A DNA stretch of 64,000 nt from the NCBI RefSeq assembly GCF_003097615.1, contig NZ_QCZG01000013.1, positions 16,016 through 80,015 on the forward strand, read 5' to 3'. The position numbers were made by a program, and so were the translations under genes. This DNA comes from Pueribacillus theae (lineage in GTDB: Bacteria; Bacillota; Bacilli; Bacillales; UBA6769). Within the stretch, counting starts at the first letter, position 1. Every line of letters starts with the position of its first letter. Under the pieces are notes generated by a model that did not search any database, was not told where the DNA came from, and saw only the letters and a list, made by a program, of their open reading frames with translations. Below, one piece after another: positions 6,272-40,248 of this stretch.

Positions 6272-9223
<2,952 letters not shown>

Positions 9224-9249
9224 TAATATTCCTCCTAGCTGCTGTGCTT

Positions 9250-10032
9250 CTATTTCTGGCCTACTGTTTCATCTTCAATGCCCAGTTCTGCTTTAATCCA
9301 ATCATACCCTTCAGCTTCCAGGCGCTCAGCAAGCTCTGGGCCGCCAGATTTTACAATTCTCCCTTGCATCATGACATGGACTTTATCCGGCTTAATATAA
9401 TTTAACAAACGTTGATAGTGTGTAATGATCAGCGCTCCAAACTCAGGATTCCTCATTTCGTTGACGCCTTTGGCAACAATTTTCAACGCATCAATATCAA
9501 GACCTGAATCAATTTCATCCAAAATTGCAATCTTCGGCTCAAGCATGAGCAACTGCAAAATTTCATTTCGCTTTTTTTCTCCGCCTGAAAAACCCTCATT
9601 TAAATAACGTTGGCTGAATGATTCATCCATATCAAGCAATTTCATTTTTTCATCAAGTTGGCGGATAAATTTCATTAGTTGAACTTCGTTGCCTTCCCCG
9701 CGCTTCGCATTGATGGCTGTTCTCATGAAATCCGCATTCGTTACACCACTGACTTCGCTCGGATATTGCATCGCAAGAAATAGACCTTCTCTTGCACGTT
9801 CATCAACTTCCATTTCAAGCAAGTCTTTGCCGTTGAACGTTACACTTCCTTGAGTGACTTCATATCTAGGGTGTCCCATAAGCGCAGAAGCAAGCGTTGA
9901 TTTTCCTGTTCCGTTAGGACCCATTACGGCATGGATTTCTCCGCCCTTAATTTCAAGGCTTAAATCTTTAATAATCTCTGTATCTTCAATCGATACATGT
10001 AAATTATCAATTTTTAAATGTGGTGCTGTCAT
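9250..10032 (-). CDS. sufC: Fe-S cluster assembly ATPase SufC
   Basis: 260 aa with Walker A (GPNGTGKST), ABC signature (FSGGEKKR) and Walker B (LDEIDSGLD). Confidence 0.9.
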   Translation of the reverse strand: MTAPHLKIDNLHVSIEDTEIIKDLSLEIKGGEIHAVMGPNGTGKSTLASALMGHPRYEVTQGSVTFNGKDLLEMEVDERAREGLFLAMQYPSEVSGVTNADFMRTAINAKRGEGNEVQLMKFIRQLDEKMKLLDMDESFSQRYLNEGFSGGEKKRNEILQLLMLEPKIAILDEIDSGLDIDALKIVAKGVNEMRNPEFGALIITHYQRLLNYIKPDKVHVMMQGRIVKSGGPELAERLEAEGYDWIKAELGIEDETVGQK

Positions 10033-10231
10033 GAAAAATACCTCCAGTAGATGAATGTAATTTCGATGTTAGGTTATCATTTGCAAATGGGAAAGTTTTG
10101 CCTAACACCCACAATTTCTCAACATGAATATTGGTTTTTGTATTCTCAATCTATTCTCATTACAATCTTATAACAAATAAAAATGTTTATCAAGTAATGT
10201 CCCTCTATAGCAATTAGGCTATCCAAACAGA

Positions 10232-10265
10232 TGAAAAGCCAGTCACCCATTGACTGGCTTTTCAT
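10232..10265. terminator. perfect inverted repeat AAAAGCCAGTCA-cccat-TGACTGGCTTTT
   Basis: 12-bp perfect stem flanked by an A-run and a T-run, so it can terminate in either direction. Lies between the small ORF and the suf promoter region. Confidence 0.6.
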
Positions 10266-10280
10266 CTATTTATCGTCATA

Positions 10281-10427
10281 CTAATGATCTTTCACAGCGT
10301 CCTTGACAACCCAGCGGCTTTTCTTGTAGCTTTGTTCCCTTGTTTTTTCCACTTCAATCCGTTTTTCAAAGCTTTGGCAATATTCGTCAAATCCAAAACC
10401 ATGCGCTTGATGCATTGCCCTTTCCAT
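10281..10427 (-). CDS. candidate 48-aa small protein (MERAMHQAHGFGFDEYCQSFEKRIEVEKTREQSYKKSRWVVKDAVKDH)
   Basis: ATG-initiated ORF below the 60-aa cutoff of the track. It sits between the metY terminator and the terminator at 10232. The RBS is weak (AAGTGA). Confidence 0.3.
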   Translation of the reverse strand: MERAMHQAHGFGFDEYCQSFEKRIEVEKTREQSYKKSRWVVKDAVKDH

Positions 10428-10641
10428 TTCACTTGTGTAATTCAAGTTTAATGGGGATAAAATAATAAACCAATCCTTTCAGTGTTTTTGATTTGGTTAA
10501 CACTATGACCATACCCTAACATTTTAATGTTGAAACAACAAACGTCATATTTGTAGAAAATCAACCGTATCTCTCCTTCTGCCACGGGCAGGCCAGATGA
10601 ACCTCATGGTTAGCAATAATCCTTAAAATCTCTGCGGAATC

Positions 10642-10665
10642 TATAAAGGCCTCTTAAACAGAGGC
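10642..10665 (-). terminator. metY terminator (GGCCTCTgtttaAGAGGCC plus T-tract)
   Basis: 7-bp perfect stem immediately 3' of the metY stop on the minus strand. TTTATAG follows. Confidence 0.6.
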
Positions 10666-10670
10666 CGAAG

Positions 10671-11963
10671 TTATGCTGATTTTGCTTTTTGAAATGCTTG
10701 TTCAAGATCTTCAATTAAATCTTCGACATTCTCAATACCAACGGATAGGCGAATCATATCGGCACTGACACCAGCGCTTTTCAATCCTTCTTCATCAAGC
10801 TGGGAATGCGTTGTACTTGCTGGGTGGACGATTAAGCTTTTCGCATCACCGACATTGACAAGATGTGACCAAAGGTTTACAGAATTGATAACCTTTTCCC
10901 CAGCTTCTCTTCCGCCTTTGATTCCGAATACGATGATAGAGCCTGCCCCTTTTGGCAAATATTTCGCCGCAAGTTCTTTTGATTCATGATCTTCCAGTTC
11001 GGGATACGATACCCATTCTACATCAGGATGGTTCTTTAAGTACTTAACGATTTCTCTCGTATTGGCAATATGCTCTTTCATTCTTACGTGAAGGGTTTCC
11101 AATCCAAGCGCCAACTGGTGGGCGTTAAATGGGCTTAAAGAAGGACCCATGTCACGAAGCAGCTGAACGCGTGCTTTCGTAATAAATGCCTGATTCCCTA
11201 ACGCTTCAGCGTATACTAATCCATTGTAGCTTGGGTCCGGCTCAGTGAAGCCCGGAAATTTCGGGGAGTTCCAGTCGAAATTGCCGCCATCAACGAGAAG
11301 GCCGCCCATTGTTGCTCCTGCGCCGCCGATCCATTTCGTTGCAGAGTGAACGACAATATTCGCCCCATGTTCAATTGGCCGGCATAAATATGGGGTACCG
11401 AACGTGTTGTCAACAATTAAAGGGATGCCATTTTCATTGGCAATCTTCGCTACTGCTTCGATGTCCAGTACGTTAAGCCCAGGATTGCCAATCGTTTCAG
11501 CAAAAATCGCTTTCGTCTTTGACGTGATCGCATTGCGGAAATTTTCCGGATCGGAAGGATCAACAAAAATTGTTTTTATTCCGTACTTTGGTAATGTAAC
11601 AGCAAACAAATTGTATGTACCGCCATATAATGTGGAAGCAGCCAGGATTTCATCCCCTGTGCCGGCTATGTTCATAATAGCCATCGTAATCGCAGCCGAA
11701 CCGCTTGCAAGCCCCAAGCTTCCAACCCCGCCTTCCATTTGTGTGATGCGTTCTTCTAAAGCACCAACGGTTGGATTCATAATCCGTGTATAAATATTGC
11801 CTGGTTCTGTAAGCGCAAAAAGATTCGCGGCATGTTCTGTATCTCTAAATTGGTAAGCGGTTGTCTGGTAAATTGGCAAGGCTCTCGATCCCGTCACAGG
11901 GTCGGCTTCAAGGCCAGCGTGAACGCCAAGTGTCTCTATACGATATTTTTTTTCTTCTGACAT
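10671..11963 (-). CDS. metY: O-acetylhomoserine aminocarboxypropyltransferase/sulfhydrylase (Cys/Met PLP-dependent family)
   Basis: The ORF extends to 11996. I prefer the ATG at 11963 (MSEEKKY), which follows AAGGAGG with correct spacing. Cys/Met-metabolism PLP-enzyme signature including the lysine in STKWIGG. Confidence 0.85.
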
Positions 11964-20937: not shown

Positions 20938-21119
20938 TTTTTGTTATAAAAAAATTTGAAATTTCCTTTTTCACTATTTAATATAACGGATTTTCTCGAT
21001 GAACGCAATAAAAAATTATGCAGAGAGAGCTTGAATTTCGACTCATTCAAGTTCATGCGTGATAATTTCATCCATTTTGCCGCATACTAAAATTAATTTT
21101 TTACGAGGAGGGAATTGTA

Positions 21120-21406
21120 TGGACAATCAGCAACCATTGCAAACCGAACAAAATATTATGCCACAGCCGCCAAACATCATATCAACAAAAGACCATTTGT
21201 ATATGACCGATATGTTATCGTGGAATTTGCTGGCTATGAAAAAAGCGTATCATTGGGCTGAAGAATGCACAGATCCCGAAGTAAAACAAGCAATCCAAAA
21301 GTCAGGTGACATGCACCAGCGCCATTATGAAAGATTACTTAGCCACTTAAAACCTCAGGCTATGTCAACACAACAAATGACAAATATGCCACAACAACAG
21401 CAATAA
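21120..21406 (+). CDS. CotF-like spore coat protein (Coat_F domain), YusN-like
   Basis: The ORF starts at 21059. I prefer the ATG at 21120 (MDNQQPLQ), which follows AGGAGGG. Gln-rich termini and a conserved Coat_F core (DHLYMTDMLSWNLLAMKKAYHWAEEC). Confidence 0.7.
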
Positions 21407-21419
21407 GGGAGGAATTCTC

Positions 21420-21749
21420 GTGCAATCGAATCAAAGCAATAAAATTAAAAACCCTCAATCACAAGTTCCCAAGACTGAGCTTATGAATGATCGCGATCGG
21501 TTAAATGATATGCTGTCAACTGAAAAATATATGACAGACGGCTATGATACCGCTTTGAATGAAGCAAGCCATGAGCAGCTTTATCAAGATATTCTCATGA
21601 TATACACCGAAACACAAAACTGCCAGCGTGATCTTTTCAATTTAATGTTTAAAAAAGGCTGGTATAAATTAGAGGCTGCGGACGGGCAACAGCTCCAACA
21701 ATCCCAGCAACAATTTGCCAATTACATGACAACACAGTTTCCCCATTAA
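21420..21749 (+). CDS. second CotF-like spore coat protein
   Basis: GTG start after GGGAGG. Coat_F-like core (MTDGYDTALNEASHEQLYQDIL). Followed by the terminator at 21773. Confidence 0.65.
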   Translation: MQSNQSNKIKNPQSQVPKTELMNDRDRLNDMLSTEKYMTDGYDTALNEASHEQLYQDILMIYTETQNCQRDLFNLMFKKGWYKLEAADGQQLQQSQQQFANYMTTQFPH

Positions 21750-21772: not shown

Positions 21773-21797
21773 TAAGGGGCTTATCAAGTAGCCCCTT
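21773..21797 (+). terminator. terminator AAGGGGCTtatcaagtAGCCCCTT plus T-rich tract
   Basis: 8-bp perfect stem directly after the second CotF-like gene. Confidence 0.6.
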
Positions 21798-22015
21798 GTT
21801 TACCAGTGCCTTAACGGCTCAATATATAGATTGAAATGGCTACATTATCCTTCTCGACTTTGGTGTTCCCTTCAATCGACCCAAAACGTTCATTTGTTTT
21901 ATTTACGTAATTTTCTACCTGAAACTCTTGGATGGAGCACAAATCTGATTCTAACAGGTGAGCGGACTAAACATTACGCTTTTAATATAAGCTGTAATAT
22001 CTAGCCTGGATCTCA

Positions 22016-23131
22016 TTAATAAGGCGTGGCCTGCCAGGTGTGATAGCCCAGATTAGCCAATGTAGCGAGAATGTTGCGCGTGCCGATCGCTTTTGTGATG
22101 GGTTGGAAACCCGTAGCTAAGAGCTGGCCAGCGAGAATCCGGCGACATGCTTCTGCCGCTAATGCGCCGGTTTGCAAGTAAGGCGAATTTCCTCGCAGTA
22201 CTACATTTACGCCACCGGTGTTACCACGACCGATACAAGAGATGACCGACCGGTTGACATCTGGATTCTCCCGGGATGGTTCTTCAGGAGTGATGGTTCC
22301 GCCAATTTCATTTGTAACCTTTTCCTGCTCTTTGGCACTCAAAGAACGATACTTTTCTTCGAACTCCTCGAGTACTTTTAAAATGCCGCCGAACATGACT
22401 TCATTCTTAAAGCCCACCAACGTCGCACAGTTGGTCACCCGCTCGTCATTCTCGAACCACACCGTTTCACCGCCACCAGACCAAGGTAAAGCTTTGAATA
22501 ACCGGTGCTGATCCGGAGTCTTAACATCATATGCTTTTGCGTATGGCCACATCCGCAAGGTATTGTTTTCTAGGTAGTATTGTGGCTTGGTGCACATCCT
22601 TAGAAAAGACTTGGTAGAAGTAGTGCTGGTAGACGAGTCTGCAAAATAAAGGATATCCAACGAGTTCACACCGGGAGTTTCCAACGCTATCTCAGCCGCC
22701 ATCATTCCAGCAGTCCACATATAAGCTGAGGCCGGAGCTAAAAGTAAGGCTTTCTTGTCAAACTTCTCACCATATTGATCGCGTAAGAAGAACATCCAAT
22801 CAGTTTCGCCGGTTGAGTCAAGGTAGTGGCAATTAGCCGTCAGTGCTGCCTTTACCACAGTTTCACCGACTTGCATAAACGGCCCTACAACGTTGTAGAC
22901 CACCTTTTTTCCTGTGAACAAATCGGTTAGCGCTGCTTCCTTATGGGCCACCTCGACTACGCTATAGTCTGCGTTCTCAAGCTCGGGCACTAGGGTACAT
23001 TGCTCTTTCAAGCGAGACATACTTCTTCCAGCGGCAATGAAAGGAATCCCCAGTTCAGCCAGATGTTTCATAATCAGTTTGCCTGTATAACCACTAGCAC
23101 CATAAACAACTACGTCTTTATTTTTCATCAT
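22016..23131 (-). CDS. saccharopine-dehydrogenase-like NAD(P)-binding oxidoreductase (putative enoyl reductase)
   Basis: 371 aa with an N-terminal Rossmann motif VVYGASGYTGK. GAGGAGG RBS. Last gene of the sigma-54 operon. GC-rich codon usage. Confidence 0.65.
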   Translation of the reverse strand: MMKNKDVVVYGASGYTGKLIMKHLAELGIPFIAAGRSMSRLKEQCTLVPELENADYSVVEVAHKEAALTDLFTGKKVVYNVVGPFMQVGETVVKAALTANCHYLDSTGETDWMFFLRDQYGEKFDKKALLLAPASAYMWTAGMMAAEIALETPGVNSLDILYFADSSTSTTSTKSFLRMCTKPQYYLENNTLRMWPYAKAYDVKTPDQHRLFKALPWSGGGETVWFENDERVTNCATLVGFKNEVMFGGILKVLEEFEEKYRSLSAKEQEKVTNEIGGTITPEEPSRENPDVNRSVISCIGRGNTGGVNVVLRGNSPYLQTGALAAEACRRILAGQLLATGFQPITKAIGTRNILATLANLGYHTWQATPY

Positions 23132-23146
23132 TACTGCCTCCTCTTT

Positions 23147-24778
23147 TTAATTGTTAACACGAACGGAATCAACCCGGTCCCCTCTGCGAGAGAAAATAAC
23201 TCCCTCACCAGTATTCAGGTGTTGAACTAGAAATCTCTCTACTGGTTTCTCCGACGCTGTTTTAGGAATTTCAGCAAGTACTTGAAAGTAATCGGGATGA
23301 GGGCCTTGACCGATAACCTCGCTAACCTTAGATAGAAAGTCATCGATAACTAGTTTTCTCTTTTCATTCAACACGATAGCGGCAATCACCGTTTTTTCAC
23401 CTGGAGAGTTGCTGTCTAAGGCTACACCGTAGACATACACATCGTTAATGTCGGGATGTTTGGCCAACGCTGTCATCATGTCCTCGACAATAATGAATTC
23501 GCCGTTTCTTCTGACAGCACTGCCACCACGATAGGAGAAGTATACCCAGCCTTCTTCATCTTTGTAGCCGCAGTCTCCGCTTCGAAACCAATTCCCCTTG
23601 GTTTTCTTTTTCGATGCCTCGGGATCCTTAAAGTAGTTGACTGGGTCTGCTTTACCATCGGCATTCCTGAAGCAGATCTCACCGATATCAAAAGGTGCAC
23701 AAGGTTGATCGTGTCTATCAAGAATTTCGCACTGGATACCAGCGGGCGGTTTACCAATGGATCCTACCGGACCAACTCCGGGCGGATTGAAAGTCATCCC
23801 GCCTTCTGCAGTTCCGTAAAATTCAAATATCTTGACGTTGAAACGCCTTTCGAACTCTTCCCACATAGCCGCCGGCATGCCAGCGCTTAAAACAAAACGA
23901 ACATTATGCTGGCGTTCAGAAGGACTTTCCGGCTCGGAGAAAAGCGCTGTCGCCATGCCACCGAGCAAATTGAAAGTGGTGCATCCGTAGTGTGCGACGA
24001 TGTCCCAGAGCCGGCTTTTCGTGAATGTTCGACTAATCACAAGAGGCAGACCCAAAGTAAGGGAATACCCTAAGCTAATAAGTTGAGCATTGGCGTGGGT
24101 TAGAGACAGACCAGTGTAGGGACGGTCCTCTGGTGTCAATCCGAGAAGCGTATGCAACGCGCCCACGCTGGCGAATCGATGGTAATTGGATTGAATGGCT
24201 TTAGGATCGCCAGTGGTGCCAGAAGTAAACAGCATTTGCATAGTATCGCTTAACGGTCTAGGCTTAGCTGGGCTCGGCAATTCTTTTTCCTTGTCAATAG
24301 ATTGAAAAATATGATTTAAGGATGCAACGTAAGGGGTAGAGCAGTAATCGTTATCACTGTCTATCACCCAAGCCCACTCTAGGGGCTCTGGCCATGCCTT
24401 AAGTGCATGAATTTTACCAAGACCTTCTTCAGATACTAGCGCTCCGCGACAATCGGTGTGCAGCACCATAAACGCCAGACGTTCGGGTTGCACCCTAACA
24501 TCGATAGGCACAAAAACTGTCCCCAATATTTCCGATGCTAGCATAGCTTCAACGAACTCTGGATGGTTTCTCATCACCAAAGCAAAACGATCGCCTTCCC
24601 TCAAGCCTACATTTGCTAGTGCAGAAGCCAACATCAAACCATTGTTTAACAATTGTTCAGCGGTACGATTTTCTTCCACGAATGTGTCGTCTTCGATTGA
24701 CACGAAGGTCAGTAATAACTTGTTGGGCTCCTTTTTCGCCCAATGTTGAACGGCTCCCAAAGGAGTAAACATATTCAT
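23147..24778 (-). CDS. AMP-dependent acyl-CoA synthetase/ligase
   Basis: 543 aa with AMP-binding motifs (TSGTTGDPK, YGTAEGG, GDCGY). The start ATG lies inside copy A of the tandem duplication, with AAGGTGA 7 nt upstream. Confidence 0.8.
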   Translation of the reverse strand: MNMFTPLGAVQHWAKKEPNKLLLTFVSIEDDTFVEENRTAEQLLNNGLMLASALANVGLREGDRFALVMRNHPEFVEAMLASEILGTVFVPIDVRVQPERLAFMVLHTDCRGALVSEEGLGKIHALKAWPEPLEWAWVIDSDNDYCSTPYVASLNHIFQSIDKEKELPSPAKPRPLSDTMQMLFTSGTTGDPKAIQSNYHRFASVGALHTLLGLTPEDRPYTGLSLTHANAQLISLGYSLTLGLPLVISRTFTKSRLWDIVAHYGCTTFNLLGGMATALFSEPESPSERQHNVRFVLSAGMPAAMWEEFERRFNVKIFEFYGTAEGGMTFNPPGVGPVGSIGKPPAGIQCEILDRHDQPCAPFDIGEICFRNADGKADPVNYFKDPEASKKKTKGNWFRSGDCGYKDEEGWVYFSYRGGSAVRRNGEFIIVEDMMTALAKHPDINDVYVYGVALDSNSPGEKTVIAAIVLNEKRKLVIDDFLSKVSEVIGQGPHPDYFQVLAEIPKTASEKPVERFLVQHLNTGEGVIFSRRGDRVDSVRVNN

Positions 24779-24880
24779 GATAAAATCACCTTGACTACGA
24801 TGGCAGCGGCATCATTATCAAGCCAGTTGCCACCGTTTTCCACTAAGACGCTCTTGGCGCCTTCCGTTTTATTTTTCATA
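24650..24880. repeat. copy A of a diverged ~250-bp tandem duplication spanning the thiolase-stop/synthetase-start junction
   Basis: Aligns base-for-base (roughly 80% by eye) with 24903..25133. Both copies carry an ATGA stop/start overlap (24775-24778 and 25027-25030). Confidence 0.7.
24775..24879 (-). pseudogene. decayed duplicate of the thiolase 3' end (MKNKTEGAKSVLVENGGNWLDNDAAAIVVKVILS*)
   Basis: Homologous to the C-terminus of the intact thiolase (...VEGAKVALAENGGGWLGNDAAAIVITVLSS). It lies in copy A, and its stop overlaps the synthetase ATG. Confidence 0.6.
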
Positions 24881-24902
24881 GTTACTCCATCCCCTTTCAC
24901 AT

Positions 24903-25133
24903 GTTGACATTAATGCAACCAATTCTGTCCGCCAATGTGTCGCCTTCGAGTAACACGAAGGTTATCAGTAATCTGTTAGGATTCTTTTCCGTCAAATATT
25001 GGACTGCCCCAAAGGAGAAAATATACTCATGATGAAAGCACTGTGATTACGATGGCAGCGGCATCATTACCAAGCCAACCACCGCCATTTTCCGCTAAGG
25101 CAACCTTGGCACCTTCTACTTGACGGGCACCGG
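24903..25133. repeat. copy B of the tandem duplication
   Basis: Contains the real thiolase 3' end plus a decayed synthetase 5' fragment. Confidence 0.7.
24992..25030 (-). pseudogene. decayed duplicate of the synthetase 5' end (MSIFSPLGQSNI*)
   Basis: Homologous to the real N-terminus MNMFTPLGAVQHW. Interrupted by a stop after 12 codons. Its ATG overlaps the thiolase TGA (ATGA). Confidence 0.55.
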
Positions 25134-26226
25134 CAAGACCTCGGAGTTGTTGAGTAAGCTCAAAAATCTGCGCTAAGCCGGTGGCTCCAATAGGATGACC
25201 CTTACGAATTAAGCCTCCAGAAACACTGACAGGAATTCGCCCACCAAGTGAAGTTGCTCCATCTTCCACCAACGCGGGGCCTTCACCTTGACCACACAAC
25301 CCGAGAGCCTCGTAATACATCATTTCCGCCGGCGAAGTAGCGTCGTGAAGCTCGACGAAATCGATTTCCGCGGGATCGATCCCTGCTTGCTGATAGGCTT
25401 TTAGCGCGGTGCTTGCGGTAAGATCCGGTAAATTCTCCAAGTTGGCCCCACTGGCTAAAACCGAACTGCGAACATATACCGACGTTGTTAGACCTAGCTT
25501 TTTTGCCATTTTCGGTGAAACAAGCACAGCGGCCGCGGCACCATCGCCAAGCGGTGAACACATCGGGAGTGTCAGTGGATCGACAATGGTTCTTGCATTC
25601 ATCACATCGTCCACGCTGAGCACATTATGAAATTGCGCGTATTCGTTCAGGCTTCCGTGGTAGGAGTTTTTGGCCGCGATTTGTGCGAAGTGTCGCTTTG
25701 TAGCCCCGCTCGCGTCCATATACTTTTGGGCCATATCCGCATAAATATCCATGAACACAGAATGCCTTTGCGCACTATCCACTTTTCTCCCTAAAAATCG
25801 AGTTAAAACATCTGGGTCAGTCGTATCTGTACAGCCCATAAAAACTTGCCCCACCCGTTGCCTCTCCGGATGGTAGAGCTTTTCCACCCCGAAAGCCAGT
25901 ACCGCATCATAAGCGCCTAGTTCTACCATGGCAGCGGCTTGTTGGAATGCGGTCGAAGCGGTGGCACATGCATTTTCCACATTTATAACTGGAATTTGTT
26001 TATCATTGATGTCTTGAAGCACCACTTGGCCGTTAATACAAACTTGTCCAGTGATTAGCGGCGCACCGGCGGATCCGGCCCAGACCGCTTCAATACTTGA
26101 AAAATCAAGACCGCTGTCACTCAACGCCTGATTGATAGCAAGCAATCCCAAATCTTTGAGAGTCTTATCCGAATGATCACCGAACGGTGTCATACCTACG
26201 CCAGCAATGATCGCTTTCGTATTCAA
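25027..26226 (-). CDS. thiolase-like protein, SCP2/nonspecific-lipid-transfer-type (acetyl-CoA acetyltransferase superfamily)
   Basis: 399-aa thiolase fold (NACATASTA, HDATSPAEMM). GC-rich. Confidence 0.75.
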   Translation of the reverse strand: MNTKAIIAGVGMTPFGDHSDKTLKDLGLLAINQALSDSGLDFSSIEAVWAGSAGAPLITGQVCINGQVVLQDINDKQIPVINVENACATASTAFQQAAAMVELGAYDAVLAFGVEKLYHPERQRVGQVFMGCTDTTDPDVLTRFLGRKVDSAQRHSVFMDIYADMAQKYMDASGATKRHFAQIAAKNSYHGSLNEYAQFHNVLSVDDVMNARTIVDPLTLPMCSPLGDGAAAAVLVSPKMAKKLGLTTSVYVRSSVLASGANLENLPDLTASTALKAYQQAGIDPAEIDFVELHDATSPAEMMYYEALGLCGQGEGPALVEDGATSLGGRIPVSVSGGLIRKGHPIGATGLAQIFELTQQLRGLAGARQVEGAKVALAENGGGWLGNDAAAIVITVLSS

Positions 26227-26228
26227 GA

Positions 26229-27521
26229 CTACATCCCCGCTCTTTCAAAATCGGTCAATAGATCCCCGCCCATAATGGACAGAGCTTCATTACAGCCATC
26301 TTCAATCAATGATGATCGTGCGTCCCGGAAGATTTTTTCTACGGGATATTCCAGTGTCACCCCATTACCACCAAACAACTGTACCGCGGCACTTGCCACT
26401 TCTAGGGCGTGCTCAGTGGCAGTGATTTTTGTAAACATAGCTGCTTGTAAGGCTGGCAAACGGGAAAGCATGTTGTAACGAGCCACTCTTCGTGTTATTG
26501 CACGTGATAGTTCAACTTTCCGTGCCATGTGGAAGATTCGGCGTTTGACGTCCTGATGCTGAATGATAGGAACACCACCTTGCCTTCTTTCGTGAGCGTA
26601 ATCGTAAGCATACTCATAGGCGGCTCTAGCACAACCGGTAAACACCGCGCCCATCAAGGTGTTGGCCTCACTATGTATGGCGTACAATCCTTTTTCGTAA
26701 TCTTTAGGCTCAATCAATAAATGATCAATATCCAATTTGACATTCTCAAAAAAGATTTCCCCTTGCGGTAAAGACCGTTGACCCATTTTCTCCAGCGCGG
26801 GACCCTTTGAGACACCCGGCGCATCCAACGGAACGATTACAACCGCTCCATGGGAAGGATCCACTTTGCCGTCTTTCGTTTTCACTTGGCAATAAAGAAT
26901 AGCTAGTTCCGCGATCGGGCCATTCGATACCCAGGCAGATTTTTGACCGTTAATAATAATCTTCCCATCGGTTATTTCGGCTGAACAACCTGGTGTTCCG
27001 TAGTCTCCGCCTTTCTGGAAAGCGCGTCCTTCAGGATCTAAGCTATCCGTTCCGTGATCGGGTTCAGTAATCGCCCAGCATCCGATCAAAGATTCGTCAT
27101 ATTTTTTTGCGACAAAGTCATTGCCAAATTTCGACGCCATATAATGCGGTAAAAGATCGACGCCCGTCGAGATAGCAAGCCCTGCATCTCCATAACCCAA
27201 TTCTTCGAAGATGACGCAGAAAATATCCGGAATATCTTCCGGCGCAAATGTTGCAAGGGCTTCCACATTGATTCCGAATTGGGTGTACTGTTTTCTGAAC
27301 TCCCAAAATTGAGACTCTTCAGCAATAACTTTTTCGGCTGACAGTCTGTCTAGGGTTTGTCCAATCGGGCGCATTTTGTTTTTCGCGAAATCATTCAGTT
27401 GAGTCTGTAACGCCGATGCGGTTTCATACAGTCCTATTTCCGCCCCTAAATCACCTAGTTTTACTTTGGGGCGTGCGGGCCATTCGTTAAACGTCATGAC
27501 ATCAGATAGATTAGTACTCAA
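26229..27521 (-). CDS. acyl-CoA dehydrogenase family protein
   Basis: 430-aa ACAD fold. TTG start with AGGAGG 9 nt upstream. An alternative ATG lies at 27497. First gene downstream of the sigma-54 promoter. Confidence 0.75.
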   Translation of the reverse strand: MSTNLSDVMTFNEWPARPKVKLGDLGAEIGLYETASALQTQLNDFAKNKMRPIGQTLDRLSAEKVIAEESQFWEFRKQYTQFGINVEALATFAPEDIPDIFCVIFEELGYGDAGLAISTGVDLLPHYMASKFGNDFVAKKYDESLIGCWAITEPDHGTDSLDPEGRAFQKGGDYGTPGCSAEITDGKIIINGQKSAWVSNGPIAELAILYCQVKTKDGKVDPSHGAVVIVPLDAPGVSKGPALEKMGQRSLPQGEIFFENVKLDIDHLLIEPKDYEKGLYAIHSEANTLMGAVFTGCARAAYEYAYDYAHERRQGGVPIIQHQDVKRRIFHMARKVELSRAITRRVARYNMLSRLPALQAAMFTKITATEHALEVASAAVQLFGGNGVTLEYPVEKIFRDARSSLIEDGCNEALSIMGGDLLTDFERAGM

Positions 27522-27569
27522 AATTACTTCCTCCTTAAGAATTATTTGATTCGCTTTATTACTAAACTA

Positions 27570-27585
27570 TGCAATTCTTATGCCA
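27570..27585 (-). promoter_or_regulatory. sigma-54 (-24/-12) promoter TGGCAT-aagaa-TTGCA
   Basis: Reverse complement of tgcaattcttatgcca. Matches the consensus TGGCAC-N5-TTGCA exactly in spacing and at the GG/GC dinucleotides. Lies about 50 nt upstream of the ACAD start. Confidence 0.75.
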
Positions 27586-27603
27586 ACCTTAAAAACATCA
27601 AAA

Positions 27604-27700
27604 AGCACAGGACATAAAGAACCTGTGCTGTAAAGTAAGGTAACAAGGAACTGTCACGTTACAGTATGTGACACTGTAACAAGTTGTAACGTGACACTTT
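27604..27700 (-). promoter_or_regulatory. enhancer (UAS) region with three inverted-repeat sites
   Basis: The sites are AGCACAGG-N10-CCTGTGCT (27604-27629), TGTCACGTTACA (27652-27663) and its reverse complement TGTAACGTGACA (27685-27696). They have the TGT-N-ACA architecture of bacterial enhancer-binding protein sites, at about -40 to -140 from the sigma-54 promoter. Confidence 0.6.
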
Positions 27701-29635
27701 TTACTTTAGTTGAAATTCCTCTTTTTTTCGATAGATTGTCATGCGGGACACATTCAATAATTTTGCAGCTTGTGTTACATTCCCATTTGTCTTTTCCAGT
27801 GCTAGCATTAGCTCATTTTTCCCAATTTTAAATTTCTGCTGCGGAAAACGTTGTTTTTCATTCACTTTCTTCTTATTGGCCGGTAAGATTTCCTTTGGTA
27901 AATGTTTTGGCAAAATTTGTCTCCCGTTCGCATTAAATTTTGACTGTTCGATACAATTTTTTAACTGGCGGATGTTCCCCGGCCATTCGTACTTCATCAG
28001 TAAATCTATTGCTTCACCAGACATCTCGAATAACTTTTTTCCATTCTCAGTAAGGAAAGAGTCAACAAGTAACGGAATATCATCTTTTCTTTCGCGCAAC
28101 GGAGGGAGAGAAAGAGAAATCACATTCAACCGGTAATACAAGTCTTCCCTAAAATTCCCTTTTCTTACCTCTTCCTTTAAATTTTTATGTGTTGCGCAAA
28201 TAACCCTGACATTAATCGGAATAGGTTCTTTTGCGCCTATAGGAAAAACTTCTCTTTCTTCAAGTACCCGTAGTAGATAAACTTGTATGTCGATAGGTAA
28301 ATCAGCAATTTCGTCCAAAAAAATGGTTCCGAGGTCAGCTAACAAAAATTTCCCCTTTTTTCCTTTGGACTTAGCCCCTGTAAAGCTTCCTCCTTCATAG
28401 CCAAACAGTTCGCTGGCAATCAAATCTTTTGGGATCGCTCCACAATTTACTGCAACAAAAGGATATTCACTTCTCGGTCCAAAATAATGAATCGACTGCA
28501 CTAATACCTCTTTCCCTGTTCCGGTCTCTCCAAATATCATCATATTTTGATCACTAAAAGCTGCCTTTTTCGCTTTCTTTATCACTTTTAACATTTCTGG
28601 ATCATTCGTTACAATATTACTAAAATCTTTCTTAGCTGAATTTTTTGATAATTTTAGCAATTTATAGGGTTGCTTTTGAAAAATAACAATTCCCCCAAGC
28701 AAATTACCGCCTAGCTTGTAGGATTGAACATTTACTTTCCACAAATTATCAGCCTGCTGAAATTGTTCAATATTAAATCGTCCCAGTGATTCTAAATTTT
28801 GTACCTCTGAAAATTGTAGGATGTCATATATTGATGAACCTTCTGATATATTTAATAGATAACTAGCCGCTTTGTTACATCTAGTAACTTTTCCATTTAT
28901 GTCAAAGATCAGAAACGGATCCTGCATAAAATCTAGAAGAGATTGCAATGATAATAAGTGATCTTCCATGAGGCGATGCCCTAAAGCCTTTTCGATCTGC
29001 AAAGCCTGATTTATAACGAGATGAATATTATGCGCATGAACAAGTTCTTTCTCGCCAGTAATATTTAGAATTCCAATTATTTGATTGGTCATAGGATCTC
29101 TTATAGGTGCTGCTGAACATACCCAACGATGCCAACCTTGGCAATAGTGTTCGCTTGAAAAAATTTGAATAGGTTTTTCTTCAATTAATGCTGTCCCAAT
29201 AGCATTTGTACCTGTGCTAAGTTCATCCCAGTTACTTCCAGGTACAAAACGATGTCTTTCAACATCCATCCACATTTGGCTGTTCGATTTCGCTTCAATG
29301 ATTACTCCGGTTTTATCACATAAAACCACAGCAATTTTTTGATCAAAGAAATATTGATGAAGTTGCTCCATATATGGATTGGCAATATCTAATAAGAATT
29401 CGTTTTGTTCTATTTTTTCCTTAAGAGAATCACCTTTATATACTAAATCGGCTTCTTTCTTTAACGGATTTATAAAGCTTTGCTTACATCTTCTCCAAGA
29501 TGACAGAATAATCGGGCGCAGATCTTTAGGAAAAACATCCGAAGAATGAAAGCGCTCCCATTTTTTCATAAGAGATTTTTCTAGGGAATGGAATTCATTA
29601 AAAGCACCTACAACCATATTGCGATATTTTTTCAT
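27701..29635 (-). CDS. sigma-54-dependent Fis-family transcriptional activator (AcoR-like: N-terminal GAF/PAS sensor, AAA+ domain, C-terminal HTH)
   Basis: 644 aa with Walker A GETGTGKE, the sigma-54 contact motif GSFTGA, RERKDDI, and a C-terminal HTH (QAAKLLNVSRMTIYRK). GGAGGG RBS. This gene has lower GC than the operon it presumably controls. Confidence 0.85.
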   Translation of the reverse strand: MKKYRNMVVGAFNEFHSLEKSLMKKWERFHSSDVFPKDLRPIILSSWRRCKQSFINPLKKEADLVYKGDSLKEKIEQNEFLLDIANPYMEQLHQYFFDQKIAVVLCDKTGVIIEAKSNSQMWMDVERHRFVPGSNWDELSTGTNAIGTALIEEKPIQIFSSEHYCQGWHRWVCSAAPIRDPMTNQIIGILNITGEKELVHAHNIHLVINQALQIEKALGHRLMEDHLLSLQSLLDFMQDPFLIFDINGKVTRCNKAASYLLNISEGSSIYDILQFSEVQNLESLGRFNIEQFQQADNLWKVNVQSYKLGGNLLGGIVIFQKQPYKLLKLSKNSAKKDFSNIVTNDPEMLKVIKKAKKAAFSDQNMMIFGETGTGKEVLVQSIHYFGPRSEYPFVAVNCGAIPKDLIASELFGYEGGSFTGAKSKGKKGKFLLADLGTIFLDEIADLPIDIQVYLLRVLEEREVFPIGAKEPIPINVRVICATHKNLKEEVRKGNFREDLYYRLNVISLSLPPLRERKDDIPLLVDSFLTENGKKLFEMSGEAIDLLMKYEWPGNIRQLKNCIEQSKFNANGRQILPKHLPKEILPANKKKVNEKQRFPQQKFKIGKNELMLALEKTNGNVTQAAKLLNVSRMTIYRKKEEFQLK

Positions 29636-30034
29636 TCCCGCCCTCCTCTCAAAAAAAATTCTTTGTGAAATATCATTTATAATGCCTGTTTCAACGAGTT
29701 AAATGTGTGCTTCCGTTCGTTTATTAACTAGAGTCATTCTATATAAAATTGCACAAATAGAACAATGCCTCCTTTTTCCAAATAGTAACATAAATATTCA
29801 AAAAAGTTAAACTTCCTAAAAACATATTGTATGAATTATAAGAAACAGTGAGAATTAGCTTTTCAACGAATCCTTATAAGTGTCTACGACTTTCCCCCAC
29901 ACTGTGCCAACACTATCGTCCTCAAAATTGCAAACTCCAGCAACACCAATGTTCCAACACATCTTGGTGCCGTGGAGGTTTTTTTATTCATTTAATCTTA
30001 TGATTTTTTATTTCTTATAAGCCTGCTTTACCTA

Positions 30035-35584: not shown

Positions 35585-36451
35585 TTATAGCATATTTTTC
35601 TTCATACGGGGGCAATAAGAACACATGGAACAGCCAGGTATTTCAAAAAAGAAACAGCACGTTACACGTTTGTAGTCGTTCATTGCTTCCTCTAATGTCC
35701 GTCTATTCAAAAAACGTCCAAAAGGGGAACGGCGCTCAATTCCTTCCCATACTCCATTTTGTATAAGAAAGTCCAGATCTGCAAGGGCTTTATCCTTTTC
35801 TGGTATAAGCATTGAATACATCCATATAACATAACCCCATACGTTTTCCCATAAAATAAGTCTAGAGATTTTAGTTTTTTTAGCAAGATGTTGGATAGTG
35901 TCGCCAGCAAATGTACCTAAAATCGTCTGAAAAGCTTTTTTAGCTTCTTTATCAGAAACCTTTACCCATTCATCTTTTTCAAAGTAAAAAGACGGTAGCC
36001 AATTCTCGCCTTGAAAAGAGTCAATAACATGGATATTCTTTAATGTTCCTGTCCATAACAGCCGATATTTGCTTAGCATAAACAACAGGGCAACAACTAC
36101 AAAAGCATATCTTCTCACCCACATTGAACTCTTTACTCTTGGAATGCTCGCCTTTGTATGTTTTTCTGTCGTGCGGAGTGCTTCGGCATAATTAGATGCG
36201 AGAAAAATAGCATTGTCTTTTTCTTTGACAATCCGGTATTGCTTTAACTCTTTCCACTGTTCTTTTGTCAGTTTATGCACCTGAAACTGCCTCTTTGTCT
36301 TTAAACAAGCAGCGTCCTCTTCCGTAAGGGACACAAAATGGCGTGCCAAACATCGGATCGGTTGAGATGTGACACTCCATATTAAACACATGACGTACGG
36401 TCTCGCAGGTAACCACTTGCTCTGGTTTGCCTTGTACATAGACGGTTCCAT
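35585..36451 (-). CDS. FhuF-like ferric-siderophore reductase family protein (C-terminal C-C-x9-C-x2-C-x2-C cluster); start uncertain
   Basis: C-terminal CCFFFEIPGCSMCSYCPR resembles the FhuF 2Fe-2S ligand pattern. The ORF as drawn overlaps the upstream ATPase by 179 nt in another frame. No start candidate has a good RBS. Confidence 0.5.
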   Translation of the reverse strand: MEPSMYKANQSKWLPARPYVMCLIWSVTSQPIRCLARHFVSLTEEDAACLKTKRQFQVHKLTKEQWKELKQYRIVKEKDNAIFLASNYAEALRTTEKHTKASIPRVKSSMWVRRYAFVVVALLFMLSKYRLLWTGTLKNIHVIDSFQGENWLPSFYFEKDEWVKVSDKEAKKAFQTILGTFAGDTIQHLAKKTKISRLILWENVWGYVIWMYSMLIPEKDKALADLDFLIQNGVWEGIERRSPFGRFLNRRTLEEAMNDYKRVTCCFFFEIPGCSMCSYCPRMKKNML

Positions 36452-37273: not shown

Positions 37274-38284
37274 GTGAAAAAATTTTCCCTTTTATTCCCT
37301 GTACTTATCATATTCTTACTCATAGCAGCTTGCTCTCAAAATGACAAGCAAAGTAAGAACAGTAACGAAAACGACGATAAAACGTCAGAGGCAGCCCAAG
37401 GAAACCCTGTGACCATTTCAGGCGTACTTGGGGATGTACAGCTTGATGAACCTGCCAAAAAAGTCGTTGTACTCGAATGGACATATGCTGAAAATTTGCT
37501 GGCAGTTGGCATTCAGCCGACAGGTGTTGCAGATATTCAAGGATATAAAGATTGGGTCAAGATCGATAAGGAGCTTGATGGAAATACAGTTGATGTTGGG
37601 ACAAGGCAAGAACCAAGCCTTGAAAAAATTGCTTCACTTGAACCAGATTTAATTATTGCAATTAAATTCCGGCATGAAGCAATAAAAAATGAACTTGAAA
37701 ATATTGCTCCGACCGTCTTTTTCGATCCTTACCCAACAGATGAATCGTTCGATCAATATACTGAGATGGAATCCACATTCAAAGAAATTGCAAAAGCGGT
37801 TGGAAAATCCGAGGAAGCGGAAAACGTTCTTAAAGAGTTAGATGAAGTATATGCAGACGCGAAAGAAAAAATTGAAAATGGAGACTTAGAAACAAAAGAT
37901 GTTGTTTTAACACAAGCGTACAGTGCAAACCAGGCGCCTGAAATTCGTTTGTTTACACCGAATTCTCTCGCATCCGTCATTCTGGAAAAGATTGGGTTGA
38001 ATAATCTTCATCAATCCAAACAATTTGAAGTATATGGCTATAGCACAGTGAATGTTGAAGCATTAACGAAATATGAAAATGCAAATTTCCTTTATGTCGT
38101 TCAGGATAACGACAATGTGTTTGAAAACCAGCTGAAAAATAATAAAGTATGGAATAATCTTTCATTTGTGAAAGAAAACCGCACTTATTCTTTAGGTGGA
38201 GATACGTGGCTGTTTGGCGGACCTTTATCTGCAAAAACCTTGGCTGAGCAAATCGTTGATGTGATGGTGACGGAAGAAAAATGA
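37274..38284 (+). CDS. iron-siderophore ABC transporter substrate-binding lipoprotein (FhuD/FeuA-like)
   Basis: GTG start after GGAGGT. Lipobox LIAACSQ. Class III periplasmic binding protein signature. Confidence 0.8.
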   Translation: MKKFSLLFPVLIIFLLIAACSQNDKQSKNSNENDDKTSEAAQGNPVTISGVLGDVQLDEPAKKVVVLEWTYAENLLAVGIQPTGVADIQGYKDWVKIDKELDGNTVDVGTRQEPSLEKIASLEPDLIIAIKFRHEAIKNELENIAPTVFFDPYPTDESFDQYTEMESTFKEIAKAVGKSEEAENVLKELDEVYADAKEKIENGDLETKDVVLTQAYSANQAPEIRLFTPNSLASVILEKIGLNNLHQSKQFEVYGYSTVNVEALTKYENANFLYVVQDNDNVFENQLKNNKVWNNLSFVKENRTYSLGGDTWLFGGPLSAKTLAEQIVDVMVTEEK

Positions 38285-40248
38285 GTGTTTTCCACTGGAA
38301 GTCCTTGTGTTCTTTAGCAGGGGGCTTCCTTATCTTATTGATTGTCAGTATCATTCACCTTACTCAAGGACAAGCAGACTATACCTTTCAACAAATGTTT
38401 TCAGAAGTATGGATAGAAGGGCGTTTTCAGGATATTTTTCTCGGCCTTCGCCTTCCGCGTCTTGTGGTTGGGGTTTTAACCGGAGGAGCACTTGCAGTGT
38501 CAGGCGTCATCCTCCAAACATTGACGAACAATCCACTTGCATCTGCCAGTACACTTGGCATCAATGCCGGCGCCTTCTTTTTCGTCGTATTTTCGATGAT
38601 CTTTTTCCCTAACATTCTTGGCCAATATCCGTTCATTGTTGCATTGTTTGGTGCAGTTTTCTCTACATTTCTTGTTCTGACGCTTGCAGGAAAAACACTG
38701 GATCCTGTACGCGTTGCTTTAACAGGCATGATTGTGTCTTTATTATTTTCTTCTTTAACCGGAGCACTTCAATTATTGTTTGAAAATGAAACGAACGGCC
38801 TTTTTTTATGGGGATCTGGTACGCTTATTCAACTTGATTGGAACGGAATTCAATTCTCACTTCCTTTTATTGCGGTTGGTACTATTGCTGCAATTATGAT
38901 CGGCAAATCACTTGATGTGTTATCTCTTGGCGATGATATTGCAAGATCGCTTGGCCAATCAATCGTAAAAATGAAATTTTTTGCATGGGGAATTGCGGTT
39001 GGCCTTGCTGCGGTCACGGTTAGCGTTGTCGGGCCAATCGGCTTTATCGGTTTAATTGCGCCGCATATTGTTCGGCTACTCGGGATACGGGGACACCGCA
39101 ATGTCATCATCCATTCATTTTTATGGGGAAGTGTGCTTCTCATTTCCGCCGATGTACTCGCACGCTGGATTCAACCGGCCGAAGAATTTCCTGTCGGCGC
39201 GATGACAGCGCTCATTGGGGCACCATGGCTAATGTATTTGGCTTACCGTACAGCCAAGCGGCAAAAAAGAGGTGAGAAATCACTCGGCGGTACAAAAAGG
39301 CCTGTCCCCCTAAAATGGGTAATCCCTCTCATTGCTGCTGGAATTTGTACGATGTTTTTTATTTCTTTTTCTTACAGCGGCGCATCTGCCTGGTCCCCGG
39401 TTTCTGAATGGACCTCTACGATTGTGTGGAACTTTCGCATTCCGCGCGTTATTACTGCATTTGTAATTGGTGTCATGCTTGCAATTAGCGGTGTTTTGCT
39501 TCAAGGTGTCCTGCGTAATCCTTTAGCTGATGCAAGTGTGCTTGGGATTACTTCAATGGGCGGAGCAGGCGCGATGACATTGCTCATTCTTTTGCCTGTC
39601 CTCTCTTATTCTTGGATGCCAATAGGCGCCATCATTGGTTCTGCCCTGGCGATCGCAATCATTATAGTCATCTCTAGGAAGAACAACTTTCAGCCGATCC
39701 TAGTCGCATTGATAGGAATTTCTGTTTCTGCTTTCGGCTCAGCCTTGATTCAGATCATGATTGTAAAATCAAGGCTTGTTGTTGCAGCAGCGTTAGTGTG
39801 GCTCTCTGGAAGCACCTACGCGAAAGGATGGGAAGATGTATCACTTATTCTTATTCTCTCAGTCATTCTTATTCCAATTGCCCTTTATTTCACCCGTCCG
39901 CTTGATGCACTGTCTTTCGGCGATGATCTTGCCGCAAGCCATGGTCTTGTCGTTTCAAAAACACGTATTTGGTCGCTTCTTATCGGAGTTGCGTTAAGTG
40001 CAGTCGCTGTTTCGATTGTCGGAACGATTGGTTTTATCGGCCTGCTTGCGCCCCATGCCGCCCGCCGCCTAGTTGGCTACAGACATTTGCCTCTCATGCT
40101 TGTAAGCGGTCTTTTAGGCGGCTTGCTTCTCGTAACTGCTGACTTTATCAGCCGGGTAGCGCTAGCACCAAAGGAGATTCCCTCAGGGCTTATGGTTGCG
40201 TTAATTGGTACACCTTATTTGCTTTATTTATTACGAAAGATTAGATAA
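38281..40248 (+). CDS. fused two-domain FecCD-family iron-siderophore ABC permease (FhuB-like)
   Basis: 655 aa with two tandem FecCD permease halves. Overlaps the binding-protein stop by 4 nt. Confidence 0.8.
   Translation: MSVFHWKSLCSLAGGFLILLIVSIIHLTQGQADYTFQQMFSEVWIEGRFQDIFLGLRLPRLVVGVLTGGALAVSGVILQTLTNNPLASASTLGINAGAFFFVVFSMIFFPNILGQYPFIVALFGAVFSTFLVLTLAGKTLDPVRVALTGMIVSLLFSSLTGALQLLFENETNGLFLWGSGTLIQLDWNGIQFSLPFIAVGTIAAIMIGKSLDVLSLGDDIARSLGQSIVKMKFFAWGIAVGLAAVTVSVVGPIGFIGLIAPHIVRLLGIRGHRNVIIHSFLWGSVLLISADVLARWIQPAEEFPVGAMTALIGAPWLMYLAYRTAKRQKRGEKSLGGTKRPVPLKWVIPLIAAGICTMFFISFSYSGASAWSPVSEWTSTIVWNFRIPRVITAFVIGVMLAISGVLLQGVLRNPLADASVLGITSMGGAGAMTLLILLPVLSYSWMPIGAIIGSALAIAIIIVISRKNNFQPILVALIGISVSAFGSALIQIMIVKSRLVVAAALVWLSGSTYAKGWEDVSLILILSVILIPIALYFTRPLDALSFGDDLAASHGLVVSKTRIWSLLIGVALSAVAVSIVGTIGFIGLLAPHAARRLVGYRHLPLMLVSGLLGGLLLVTADFISRVALAPKEIPSGLMVALIGTPYLLYLLRKIR

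Follow-up and report, generated by a model that had tools for sequence, protein, structure and literature searches.

AcoR with acoABCL of Bacillus subtilis, AcxR with the acetone carboxylase genes and MimR with mimABCD are sigma-54 activators of the AcoR family that are linked to catabolic operons. LvaR is the sigma-54 activator of the levulinate operon lvaABCDE of Pseudomonas putida. Acyl-CoA-forming catabolism is under sigma-54 control also in the bkd operon of B. subtilis, in which BkdR acts on the genes of a 2-oxo-acid dehydrogenase complex, and in the atoDAEB operon of E. coli, in which the activator AtoC is a response regulator. Here, a locus comparable to these systems is described in a stretch of 64,000 nucleotides from Pueribacillus theae (contig NZ_QCZG01000013.1, positions 16,016 to 80,015), which is termed the window. 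Five genes of this window form a block that encodes a sigma-54 enhancer-binding activator and four enzymes, namely an acyl-CoA dehydrogenase family flavoprotein, an SCP2-type thiolase, an AMP-forming acyl-CoA synthetase and an NAD(P)-binding oxidoreductase with a DUF5938 domain. With a probability of roughly 0.7, this block was acquired horizontally as a catabolic module, in which a proteobacterial set of four enzymes is combined with a Firmicute sigma-54 activator.

The activator resembles AcoR, AcxR and MimR in the layout of its domains (GAF, PAS, AAA+ and HTH_8) and in the position of its gene beside the −24/−12 promoter of a catabolic operon. Its targets are different, since the downstream genes encode four enzymes of acyl-CoA metabolism whose affinity is proteobacterial, and not an acetoin dehydrogenase, an acetone carboxylase or a binuclear-iron monooxygenase. 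The block also resembles the bkd and ato systems, because an operon for enzymes that make or cleave acyl-CoA thioesters is accompanied by the gene for a dedicated sigma-54 activator, and ato includes a thiolase gene as well. However, both the enzymes and the sensor domains of the block differ from those of bkd and ato. The control of catabolic operons by sigma-54 activators is already well known, and the locus does not overturn the current understanding of it; the block represents a fairly ordinary case of transfer accompanied by a change of regulator. In the paper library that was searched, nothing relevant was found on the four-gene set, on DUF5938 or on this combination of enzymes, and searches for MimR retrieved no paper on the set.

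Limits, counterpart and distribution of the block

The limits of the block were set by blastn comparison of the window with a metagenomic contig, L080, of which a near-duplicate (L081) exists. The two sequences share 79–87% nucleotide identity over exactly 21924–29656 (minus strand) and none beyond, so that the block has the same ends in both and is embedded in unrelated flanks. The block is discrete and contains five genes in about 7.7 kb, and its limits are near those of 21800–29700 proposed in a preliminary description of this DNA. All five genes are located on the minus strand and all have intact reading frames. They encode, in the order of transcription, the activator (27701–29635, 644 residues), the dehydrogenase (26229–27521, 430 residues, with a TTG start codon), the thiolase (25027–26226, 399 residues), the synthetase (23147–24778, 543 residues) and the DUF5938 protein (22016–23131, 370 or 371 residues). 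The homology to L080 stops 92 nt past the DUF5938 stop codon, at 21924, so that the block ends in a conserved non-coding stretch 3′ of the last gene (21924–22015). The enzyme content given in the preliminary description (a dehydrogenase, an SCP2-type thiolase, a synthetase and a saccharopine-dehydrogenase-like reductase) is confirmed by Pfam and NCBIfam searches, in which the synthetase matches AMP-binding and AMP-binding_C and the oxidoreductase matches Sacchrp_dh_NADP and DUF5938. A P. theae protein has 100% identity to the DUF5938 protein, for which exact-sequence look-ups retrieve no recorded contig. In the window, the block is flanked on the left by two CotF-like genes and then by the genes for FadN, FadA and FadE, of which FadN lies 1.1 kb past the block end, and on the right by the genes for a YkuE/YaeI-like metallophosphoesterase, a FloT-like protein and a long-chain acyl-CoA ligase. 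These domain matches agree with the flanks as previously described (fadNAE and CotF-like genes on the left, a ykuE-like gene on the right).

The L080 copy of the block shows a contrast in GC content like that of the window, with 38% for the activator gene and 48–51% for the enzyme genes. When the window is compared with L080, the dS value is 0.73 for the activator gene and 0.50–1.03 for the enzyme genes, and the dN/dS value is 0.23 and 0.06–0.13, respectively. The comparable dS values and the low dN/dS values indicate that the five genes diverged together under purifying selection. Because L080 has the same AT-rich activator gene and GC-rich enzyme genes, with comparable dS values, the mosaic predates the arrival of the block in P. 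theae. The mosaic origin that was suggested earlier is therefore real, since the named relatives of the activator are nearly all from Firmicutes (Niallia, Kyrpidia, Alkalihalobacterium, Thermoflavimicrobium, Alicyclobacillus and Brevibacillus, for example) and the enzymes are proteobacterial in affinity, but the mosaic was assembled before it reached this genome. A 401-residue protein encoded beside the block in L080 (10410–11615 of that contig) shows weak similarity to replication-relaxation proteins of plasmids, with a sub-threshold Pfam match and 27% identity to a plasmid protein of Staphylospora marina. This similarity is a hint that the L080 copy is located on mobile DNA. When PLSDB is searched with the whole block, the only matches are short ones, to sigma-54 activator or AMP-binding genes of a generic kind, and no known plasmid with the block is found there.

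A diverged tandem duplication, detected from direct repeats and remnants of open reading frames, is present at the junction between the 3′ end of the thiolase gene and the 5′ end of the synthetase gene (24675–25116, minus strand, about 252 bp per copy). The two genes are thereby separated by a 248-bp spacer (24779–25026) with two decayed gene fragments, in which small open reading frames resemble both gene ends. The duplicated copies are 74–81% identical to each other in the window and 85–87% in L080. The duplication is not detected by a direct-repeat search in L093, L090 and L088, which are other loci with the four-gene set; the thiolase and synthetase genes of L088 overlap by 4 bp.

The GC content is 47–50% for the four enzyme genes and 35.7% for the activator gene (GC content at third codon positions, GC3, of 0.30), as compared to a window mean of 40.8%. 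It is 43–49% for the native neighbours fadNAE, with 48.9% for fadA. When the amino-acid content is fixed, the GC3 value exceeds the expected one by 0.044 to 0.099 for the four enzyme genes (z of 1.1–2.4) and falls below it by 0.080 for the activator gene (z of −1.7). The deviations of the enzyme genes are positive in all four cases, and none of them goes beyond the upper tail of the native genes. Thus, the compositional signal is weak and alone would not establish transfer. The preliminary description of a GC-rich block of about 8 kb holds for the enzyme genes but not for the whole block, because the GC-rich part extends over only about 5.5 kb, the activator gene is AT-rich and the GC3 values are within the native range.

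A search with the DUF5938 protein retrieves 1,394 homologues. Apart from P. theae, the named carriers all belong to the Proteobacteria (Novosphingobium, Sphingopyxis, Sphingosinicella, Niveispirillum, Cupriavidus, Thauera, Aromatoleum and Amphritea). The P. theae protein is 70–74% identical to the sphingomonad proteins, and the nearest named homologues of the enzymes are from Sphingomonadales and other Proteobacteria. Of the 25 loci in which the DUF5938 gene is flanked by 5 kb or more in each direction, 24 have all four enzyme genes within 6 kb, as counted by tblastn, and the genes occur in at least five orders. One copy of the set is carried by a conjugative MOBP plasmid, pMPC6-328K, of Pseudomonas sp. 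MPC6. The enzymes of the block are orthologous to those of the proteobacterial set, as represented by Sphingopyxis alaskensis, a Thauera sp. contig and pMPC6-328K (44–71% identity for Sphingopyxis and Thauera), and the gene order is the same as in sphingomonads. In contrast, the proteobacterial set has another class of regulator, a high GC content and outer-membrane uptake genes nearby.

In a neighbour-joining tree of DUF5938 proteins, the window protein groups with eleven unlabelled sequences. The contigs of four members of this clade were read; three of them have a GC content of 39–46%, and the fourth, L088, has a GC content of 55% and an AraC regulator gene. This low-GC clade is sister to a clade of sphingomonads, Niveispirillum and Cupriavidus, and the next clade out consists of Thauera and Aromatoleum. 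The tree suggests that the low-GC copies nest next to the proteobacterial clade. Thus, the horizontal origin put forward in the preliminary description is supported mainly by phylogeny and context, namely the proteobacterial affinity of the enzymes and the occurrence of the block in an unrelated context in L080, and not by GC content. The locus documents a metabolic set that crosses phyla with a change in the class of its regulator, which is of the AraC or MalT/LuxR type in high-GC loci and a sigma-54 activator in low-GC loci.

The activator and its control region

The activator contains GAF, PAS_8, Sigma54_activat (PF00158, 220 bits), AAA_lid_14 and HTH_8 domains, as detected by Pfam and NCBIfam searches. 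It also contains a Walker A motif (GETGTGKE), a Walker B motif (FLDEI) and a GSFTGA loop of the GAFTGA type. These matches and motifs confirm the earlier assignment of the activator as an AcoR-like protein of the GAF/PAS-AAA+-HTH type. All listed homologues with 35–56% identity carry the MimR_N domain (PF26965), as do homologues with 56–71% identity, among them the activator of L080 (70%). This domain is not reported by the local copy of Pfam for the window activator, and it is likewise unreported for the L080 activator, whose record has it. By its domain content, the activator probably belongs to the AcoR/AcxR/MimR group, and it reads as a functional protein.

The activator stop codon and the dehydrogenase start codon are 179 nt apart, and the spacer contains an inverted repeat, a hairpin with a U-tract and a promoter in this order, all on the minus strand. 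The inverted repeat is an imperfect one of 25 nt at 27649–27699, which was found by a repeat search and has the cores TGTCACGTTACA and TGTAACGTGACA. Its centre is located about 90 nt upstream of the −24 element, and its sequence is nearly identical in L080, so that it may represent a candidate binding site of the activator (upstream activating sequence). TGTTACA/TGTAACA repeats are present upstream in L080 and also in L093–L095, which are further low-GC loci with the set; the same position is given for those of L093 and L094. The terminator-like hairpin at 27592–27629 has a predicted folding energy of −12.5 kcal/mol (z of −3.4) and is kept in L080. It would end the activator transcript between the candidate binding site and the sigma-54 promoter.

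The promoter, TGGCATaagaaTTGCA, is located at 27570–27585 and consists of a −24 element (TGGCAT) and a −12 element (TTGCA). It lies 48 nt upstream of the dehydrogenase start and is followed by AAGGAGG and the TTG start codon. The pattern TGGCAYN5TTGCW is matched only once on both strands of the window, and shuffled sequences give 0.23 matches per window. The position of this match in the spacer between the activator gene and the operon, in the correct orientation, is far beyond chance. The promoter of L080 is identical to that of the window. The promoter of L093–L095 is TGGCATggttaTTGCA, in which the −24 and −12 elements are kept and all five spacer bases are changed. At another locus, L097, a related activator gene also has a TGGCAY-N5-TTGCW match just downstream of it and ahead of its target. 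The −24/−12 promoter (TGGCAT-N5-TTGCA) recognised in the preliminary description is thus borne out by its uniqueness in the window and its conservation in relatives. The layout is that of a standard enhancer-dependent promoter, at which the activator would be expected to bind and transcription to depend on sigL.

The homology to L080 starts about 20 nt ahead of the activator start codon. The activator gene must be transcribed from host sequence in 29657–30034, because this homology begins only at the ribosome-binding site of the activator. The interval of 29657–30034 between the block and the ykuE-like gene is an AT-rich non-coding stretch of about 380 bp, which is not common to L080. Only a weak sigma-70-like match (29854–29826) is present in this interval.

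In contigs with a GC content of 52–68%, the four-gene set is accompanied by a gene for either an AraC-type regulator or a large one of the MalT/LuxR type. A sigma-54 activator gene is next to the set only in low-GC loci (L080 and L093–L095, with 39–46% GC) and in the window. The three loci examined for a sigma-54 promoter ahead of the set (Sphingopyxis, Thauera and L088) have none. In a neighbour-joining tree of activators, those of the window and L080 are sister to activators that are encoded upstream of other genes. Genes for Acyl-CoA_dh_2 flavoproteins, which are unrelated to the block dehydrogenase, are located downstream of related activator genes in L096 from Niallia sp. (8001–11340) and in L097 (8001–11415). 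A gene of the hydantoinase family, which includes acetone carboxylase, is located downstream of a related activator gene in L178 (8001–12200). This activator subfamily seems to have been re-used for several catabolic operons in Bacillales.

Three other loci, L090–L092, carry a low-GC version of the set, in which no sigma-54 activator gene is present directly upstream and no strict sigma-54 promoter match is present in the upstream spacer. The set of L090 follows genes for an M20 peptidase and an MR_MLE racemase-type protein, and a sodium:solute symporter gene is located after the set in all three loci. One member sequence of the 13-member protein cluster of these loci is recorded on 51 contigs.

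Enzymes, possible chemistry and alternative explanations

All NCBIfam matches of the five block proteins fall below the cut-offs, and therefore no substrate is assignable from them. The best matches of the thiolase in the Protein Data Bank (PDB) are SCP2-thiolase type-1 (E value of 2e-62) and the benzoylsuccinyl-CoA thiolase BbsB (E value of 6e-61). The DUF5938 protein matches PF03435 with 30.1 bits (cut-off of 25.1), and a sequence search of the PDB gives no match to it. Its AlphaFold model, which has a pLDDT of 92, is similar to carboxyspermidine and L-lysine dehydrogenases (TM scores of 0.70–0.76) and to saccharopine reductases (0.61–0.65) in a Foldseek search, with 11–16% identity. The protein is thus assigned, from its N-terminal NADP-binding Rossmann domain and its predicted fold, to the saccharopine dehydrogenase/reductase superfamily.

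The neighbours of the set in high-GC loci are genes for the alpha and beta subunits of electron transfer flavoprotein (ETF), TonB-dependent receptors, a DUF1302/DUF1329/BNR/MMPL group, and short-chain and zinc dehydrogenases. In one case, L088, a gene for a flavin-containing monooxygenase (FMO)-like protein, possibly a Baeyer-Villiger enzyme, adjoins the set. This neighbourhood points to the breakdown of an imported compound, which is probably hydrophobic, with a real ETF-linked dehydrogenation; the presence of ETF genes beside the set argues for a true dehydrogenase.

The following mechanism is proposed. The enzyme core would derive from the four-gene set that is widespread in Proteobacteria. 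In a low-GC (Firmicute) lineage, this set would have been joined to an activator of the AcoR/AcxR/MimR type and a −24/−12 promoter. The resultant five-gene unit would then have spread, and one copy would have come to lie between the cotF-like and ykuE-like genes of P. theae. The activator would be produced from a host-supplied promoter, with its transcript ending at the hairpin, and would bind to the inverted repeat that directly follows the stop codon of its gene. Once a small effector is bound by the MimR_N/GAF-PAS sensor, the AAA+ domain would remodel the sigma-54 holoenzyme at TGGCAT-N5-TTGCA, and the four genes would then be transcribed as a single operon; this effector may be a ketone, an oxo-acid or the substrate of the pathway. 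An organic acid, probably a hydrophobic or branched one, would be converted to its CoA thioester. This thioester would be oxidised at the alpha,beta position with transfer of electrons to ETF, and a step catalysed by the NAD(P) enzyme and thiolytic cleavage would follow. The hydratase and 3-hydroxyacyl-CoA dehydrogenase steps, if needed, may be provided by host enzymes, such as the adjacent FadN. As regards the effector, the substrate, the order of the reactions and the dependence on sigL, this scheme is what we infer.

Several observations weigh against the reading of the block as an acquired module for beta-oxidation-like breakdown, some with respect to its transfer and others with respect to its chemistry. 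If the operon were native and vertically inherited, its higher GC content would result from the Ala/Gly-rich composition of the enzymes and from codon preference. In agreement with this possibility, the GC3 deviation is small, per gene within the native range, much of the GC excess is due to amino-acid content, and the native fadA gene likewise reaches about 49% GC. Host genes for fatty-acid metabolism lie on both sides of the block (fadNAE on one side and the gene for long-chain acyl-CoA ligase on the other). Neither integrase nor transposase genes are present at the block borders, as the preliminary description had correctly stated. The block has no terminal or flanking repeats, no tRNA gene is present in 15–36 kb, and no Rfam match is found in 20.5–31.5 kb. 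No empty site is seen either, the YkuE-like protein of the nearest genome being only 54% identical; this best match of the YkuE-like protein among 185,579 species genomes, from Priestia, is non-syntenic and uninformative as an empty-site test. In addition, the neighbour-joining tree of DUF5938 is midpoint-rooted and covers only the 120 best matches to the query, the closest homologues (75–89% identity) are without taxon labels, and L088, with its 55% GC content and AraC regulator gene, nests inside the low-GC clade, which leaves room for more than one direction and number of transfers. On the other side, the L080 block has identical ends and unrelated flanks, the set is otherwise proteobacterial with up to 74% identity to sphingomonads, and the activator and the enzymes differ in taxonomic affinity. 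Moreover, the 79 ykuE loci of other Bacillota contain neither the block nor the fadN-cotF-ykuE arrangement. Among the marks of a genomic island, the classical ones (integrase or transposase genes, tRNA genes and repeats) are thus absent, and unrelated contexts and a phylogenetic conflict with the host are present. A native origin is very unlikely in the light of these results. It is most improbable that the acquired block is a silent passenger in P. theae, in which sigma-54 or the effector would be lacking. No sigL gene is present inside the 64-kb window, to which the search was confined, and the block does not bring a promoter for its own activator, as judged from the start of the L080 homology. 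However, the five reading frames are intact, the dN/dS values against L080 are 0.06–0.23, and the promoter, the inverted repeat and the hairpin are conserved.

The chemistry may not be a turn of beta-oxidation at all, because the active sites are atypical and two steps are missing. When the dehydrogenase is aligned to human medium-chain acyl-CoA dehydrogenase (MCAD), Asp408 aligns with the catalytic Glu376 (Glu401 of the precursor), and Asn occupies the position of Arg256. The Asp residue, which is part of the motif (E/A)DGCNE, is invariant in all eight orthologues. A catalytic Asp at the corresponding position is reported in ACAD10, ACAD11 and LvaC, enzymes that act by elimination of phosphate from 4-phosphoacyl-CoA (PMC12440821). 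The thiolase resembles SCP2 (SCPx) thiolases and BbsB in that it keeps the nucleophile Cys (ENACATAS) and the His of GHP, but its HDCF motif reads HDAT (with Ala296), so that the acid/base Cys is missing, as it is in BbsB (HDAF). This substitution is kept in eight orthologues. The block differs from the BbsB system in lacking a gene for a DUF35/BbsA-type partner. No crotonase or 3HCDH domain is detected by Pfam in the block, which is thus without a hydratase and without a 3-hydroxyacyl-CoA dehydrogenase. The relatives of the DUF5938 protein by predicted fold act on C-N bonds, as imine-forming dehydrogenases, which the acyl-CoA context would leave unexplained. The preliminary description of a beta-oxidation-like pathway is therefore sound for the presence of acyl-CoA enzymes but not for a full cycle, and beta-oxidation-like is a loose label, because two enzymes of the cycle are lacking and two of those present have atypical active sites. 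Instead of a beta-oxidation-like breakdown, the operon might catalyse a different acyl-CoA transformation. In one variant, oxo-, hydroxy- or amino-acids would be processed independently of a kinase, the Asp-containing flavoprotein eliminating or isomerising and the DUF5938 protein reducing a C=O, C=N or C=C bond; in the other variant, the role would be a condensing, biosynthetic one. Besides the active sites and the missing steps, the hydantoinase-family and flavoprotein genes downstream of related activators and the FMO-like gene that adjoins the set in L088 are in favour of such a transformation. Like the lva system, the block is under apparent sigma-54 control and encodes a synthetase, an NAD(P)H oxidoreductase and a dehydrogenase-family protein with a catalytic Asp residue, which is shared by ACAD10 and ACAD11 (PMC12440821). 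It differs in that it has no LvaA/LvaB kinase, a saccharopine-type reductase fold in place of a short-chain dehydrogenase, a thiolase, and ETF neighbours in high-GC loci. No kinase domain is detected by Pfam or NCBIfam in any of the five block proteins, and no HCMR string (the motif according to PMC12440821) occurs in the sequence, to which LvaC and ACAD11 were not aligned directly. Membership in the lva or ACAD10/ACAD11 pathway was therefore rejected. An amine-catabolic role, as might be deduced from the DUF5938 fold, is retained only as a minority reading, because an aminotransferase gene is present in just one neighbourhood. The absence of a kinase and of a visible HCMR motif, the ETF neighbours, the single aminotransferase gene, and the regulators and uptake genes of a catabolic type all speak against a different acyl-CoA transformation, which is unlikely, although not to the same extent as a native origin.

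It is tentatively suggested, as a rather doubtful extension of the module reading, that the set encodes an undescribed CoA-dependent pathway for a substituted (oxo-, hydroxy- or amino-) or ketone-derived acid, in which the DUF5938 protein acts on an acyl-CoA and which is governed in Firmicutes by a ketone-sensing activator. If so, this activator would point to the inducer and hence to the substrate. The four-gene set is widespread, tightly linked and unstudied, and with its atypical active sites it is a reasonable target for pathway discovery, for which the activator would be a practical handle on the substrate.

Neighbouring features of the window

A hairpin with a predicted folding energy of −22.2 kcal/mol (z of −5.3) is located at 21774–21797, outside the block, in the interval between the second cotF-like gene and the block. 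This host hairpin probably acts as a terminator in both directions, and the operon transcript would end there as well. The two CotF-like genes are arranged in tandem at 21059–21749, and the product of the first one is a weak Coat_F match (19.8 bits, under the cut-off). Farther to the left, suf genes are located at 4.8–10 kb, in agreement with the yur-yus gene order of B. subtilis. To the right of the block, a 655-residue protein encoded at 38281–40248 contains two FecCD permease stretches and is thus a fused double permease. Its gene adjoins a gene for a Peripla_BP_2 binding protein, and a gene for an FhuF-like reductase (35585–36451) lies nearby, which suggests that this region is an iron-siderophore uptake locus.

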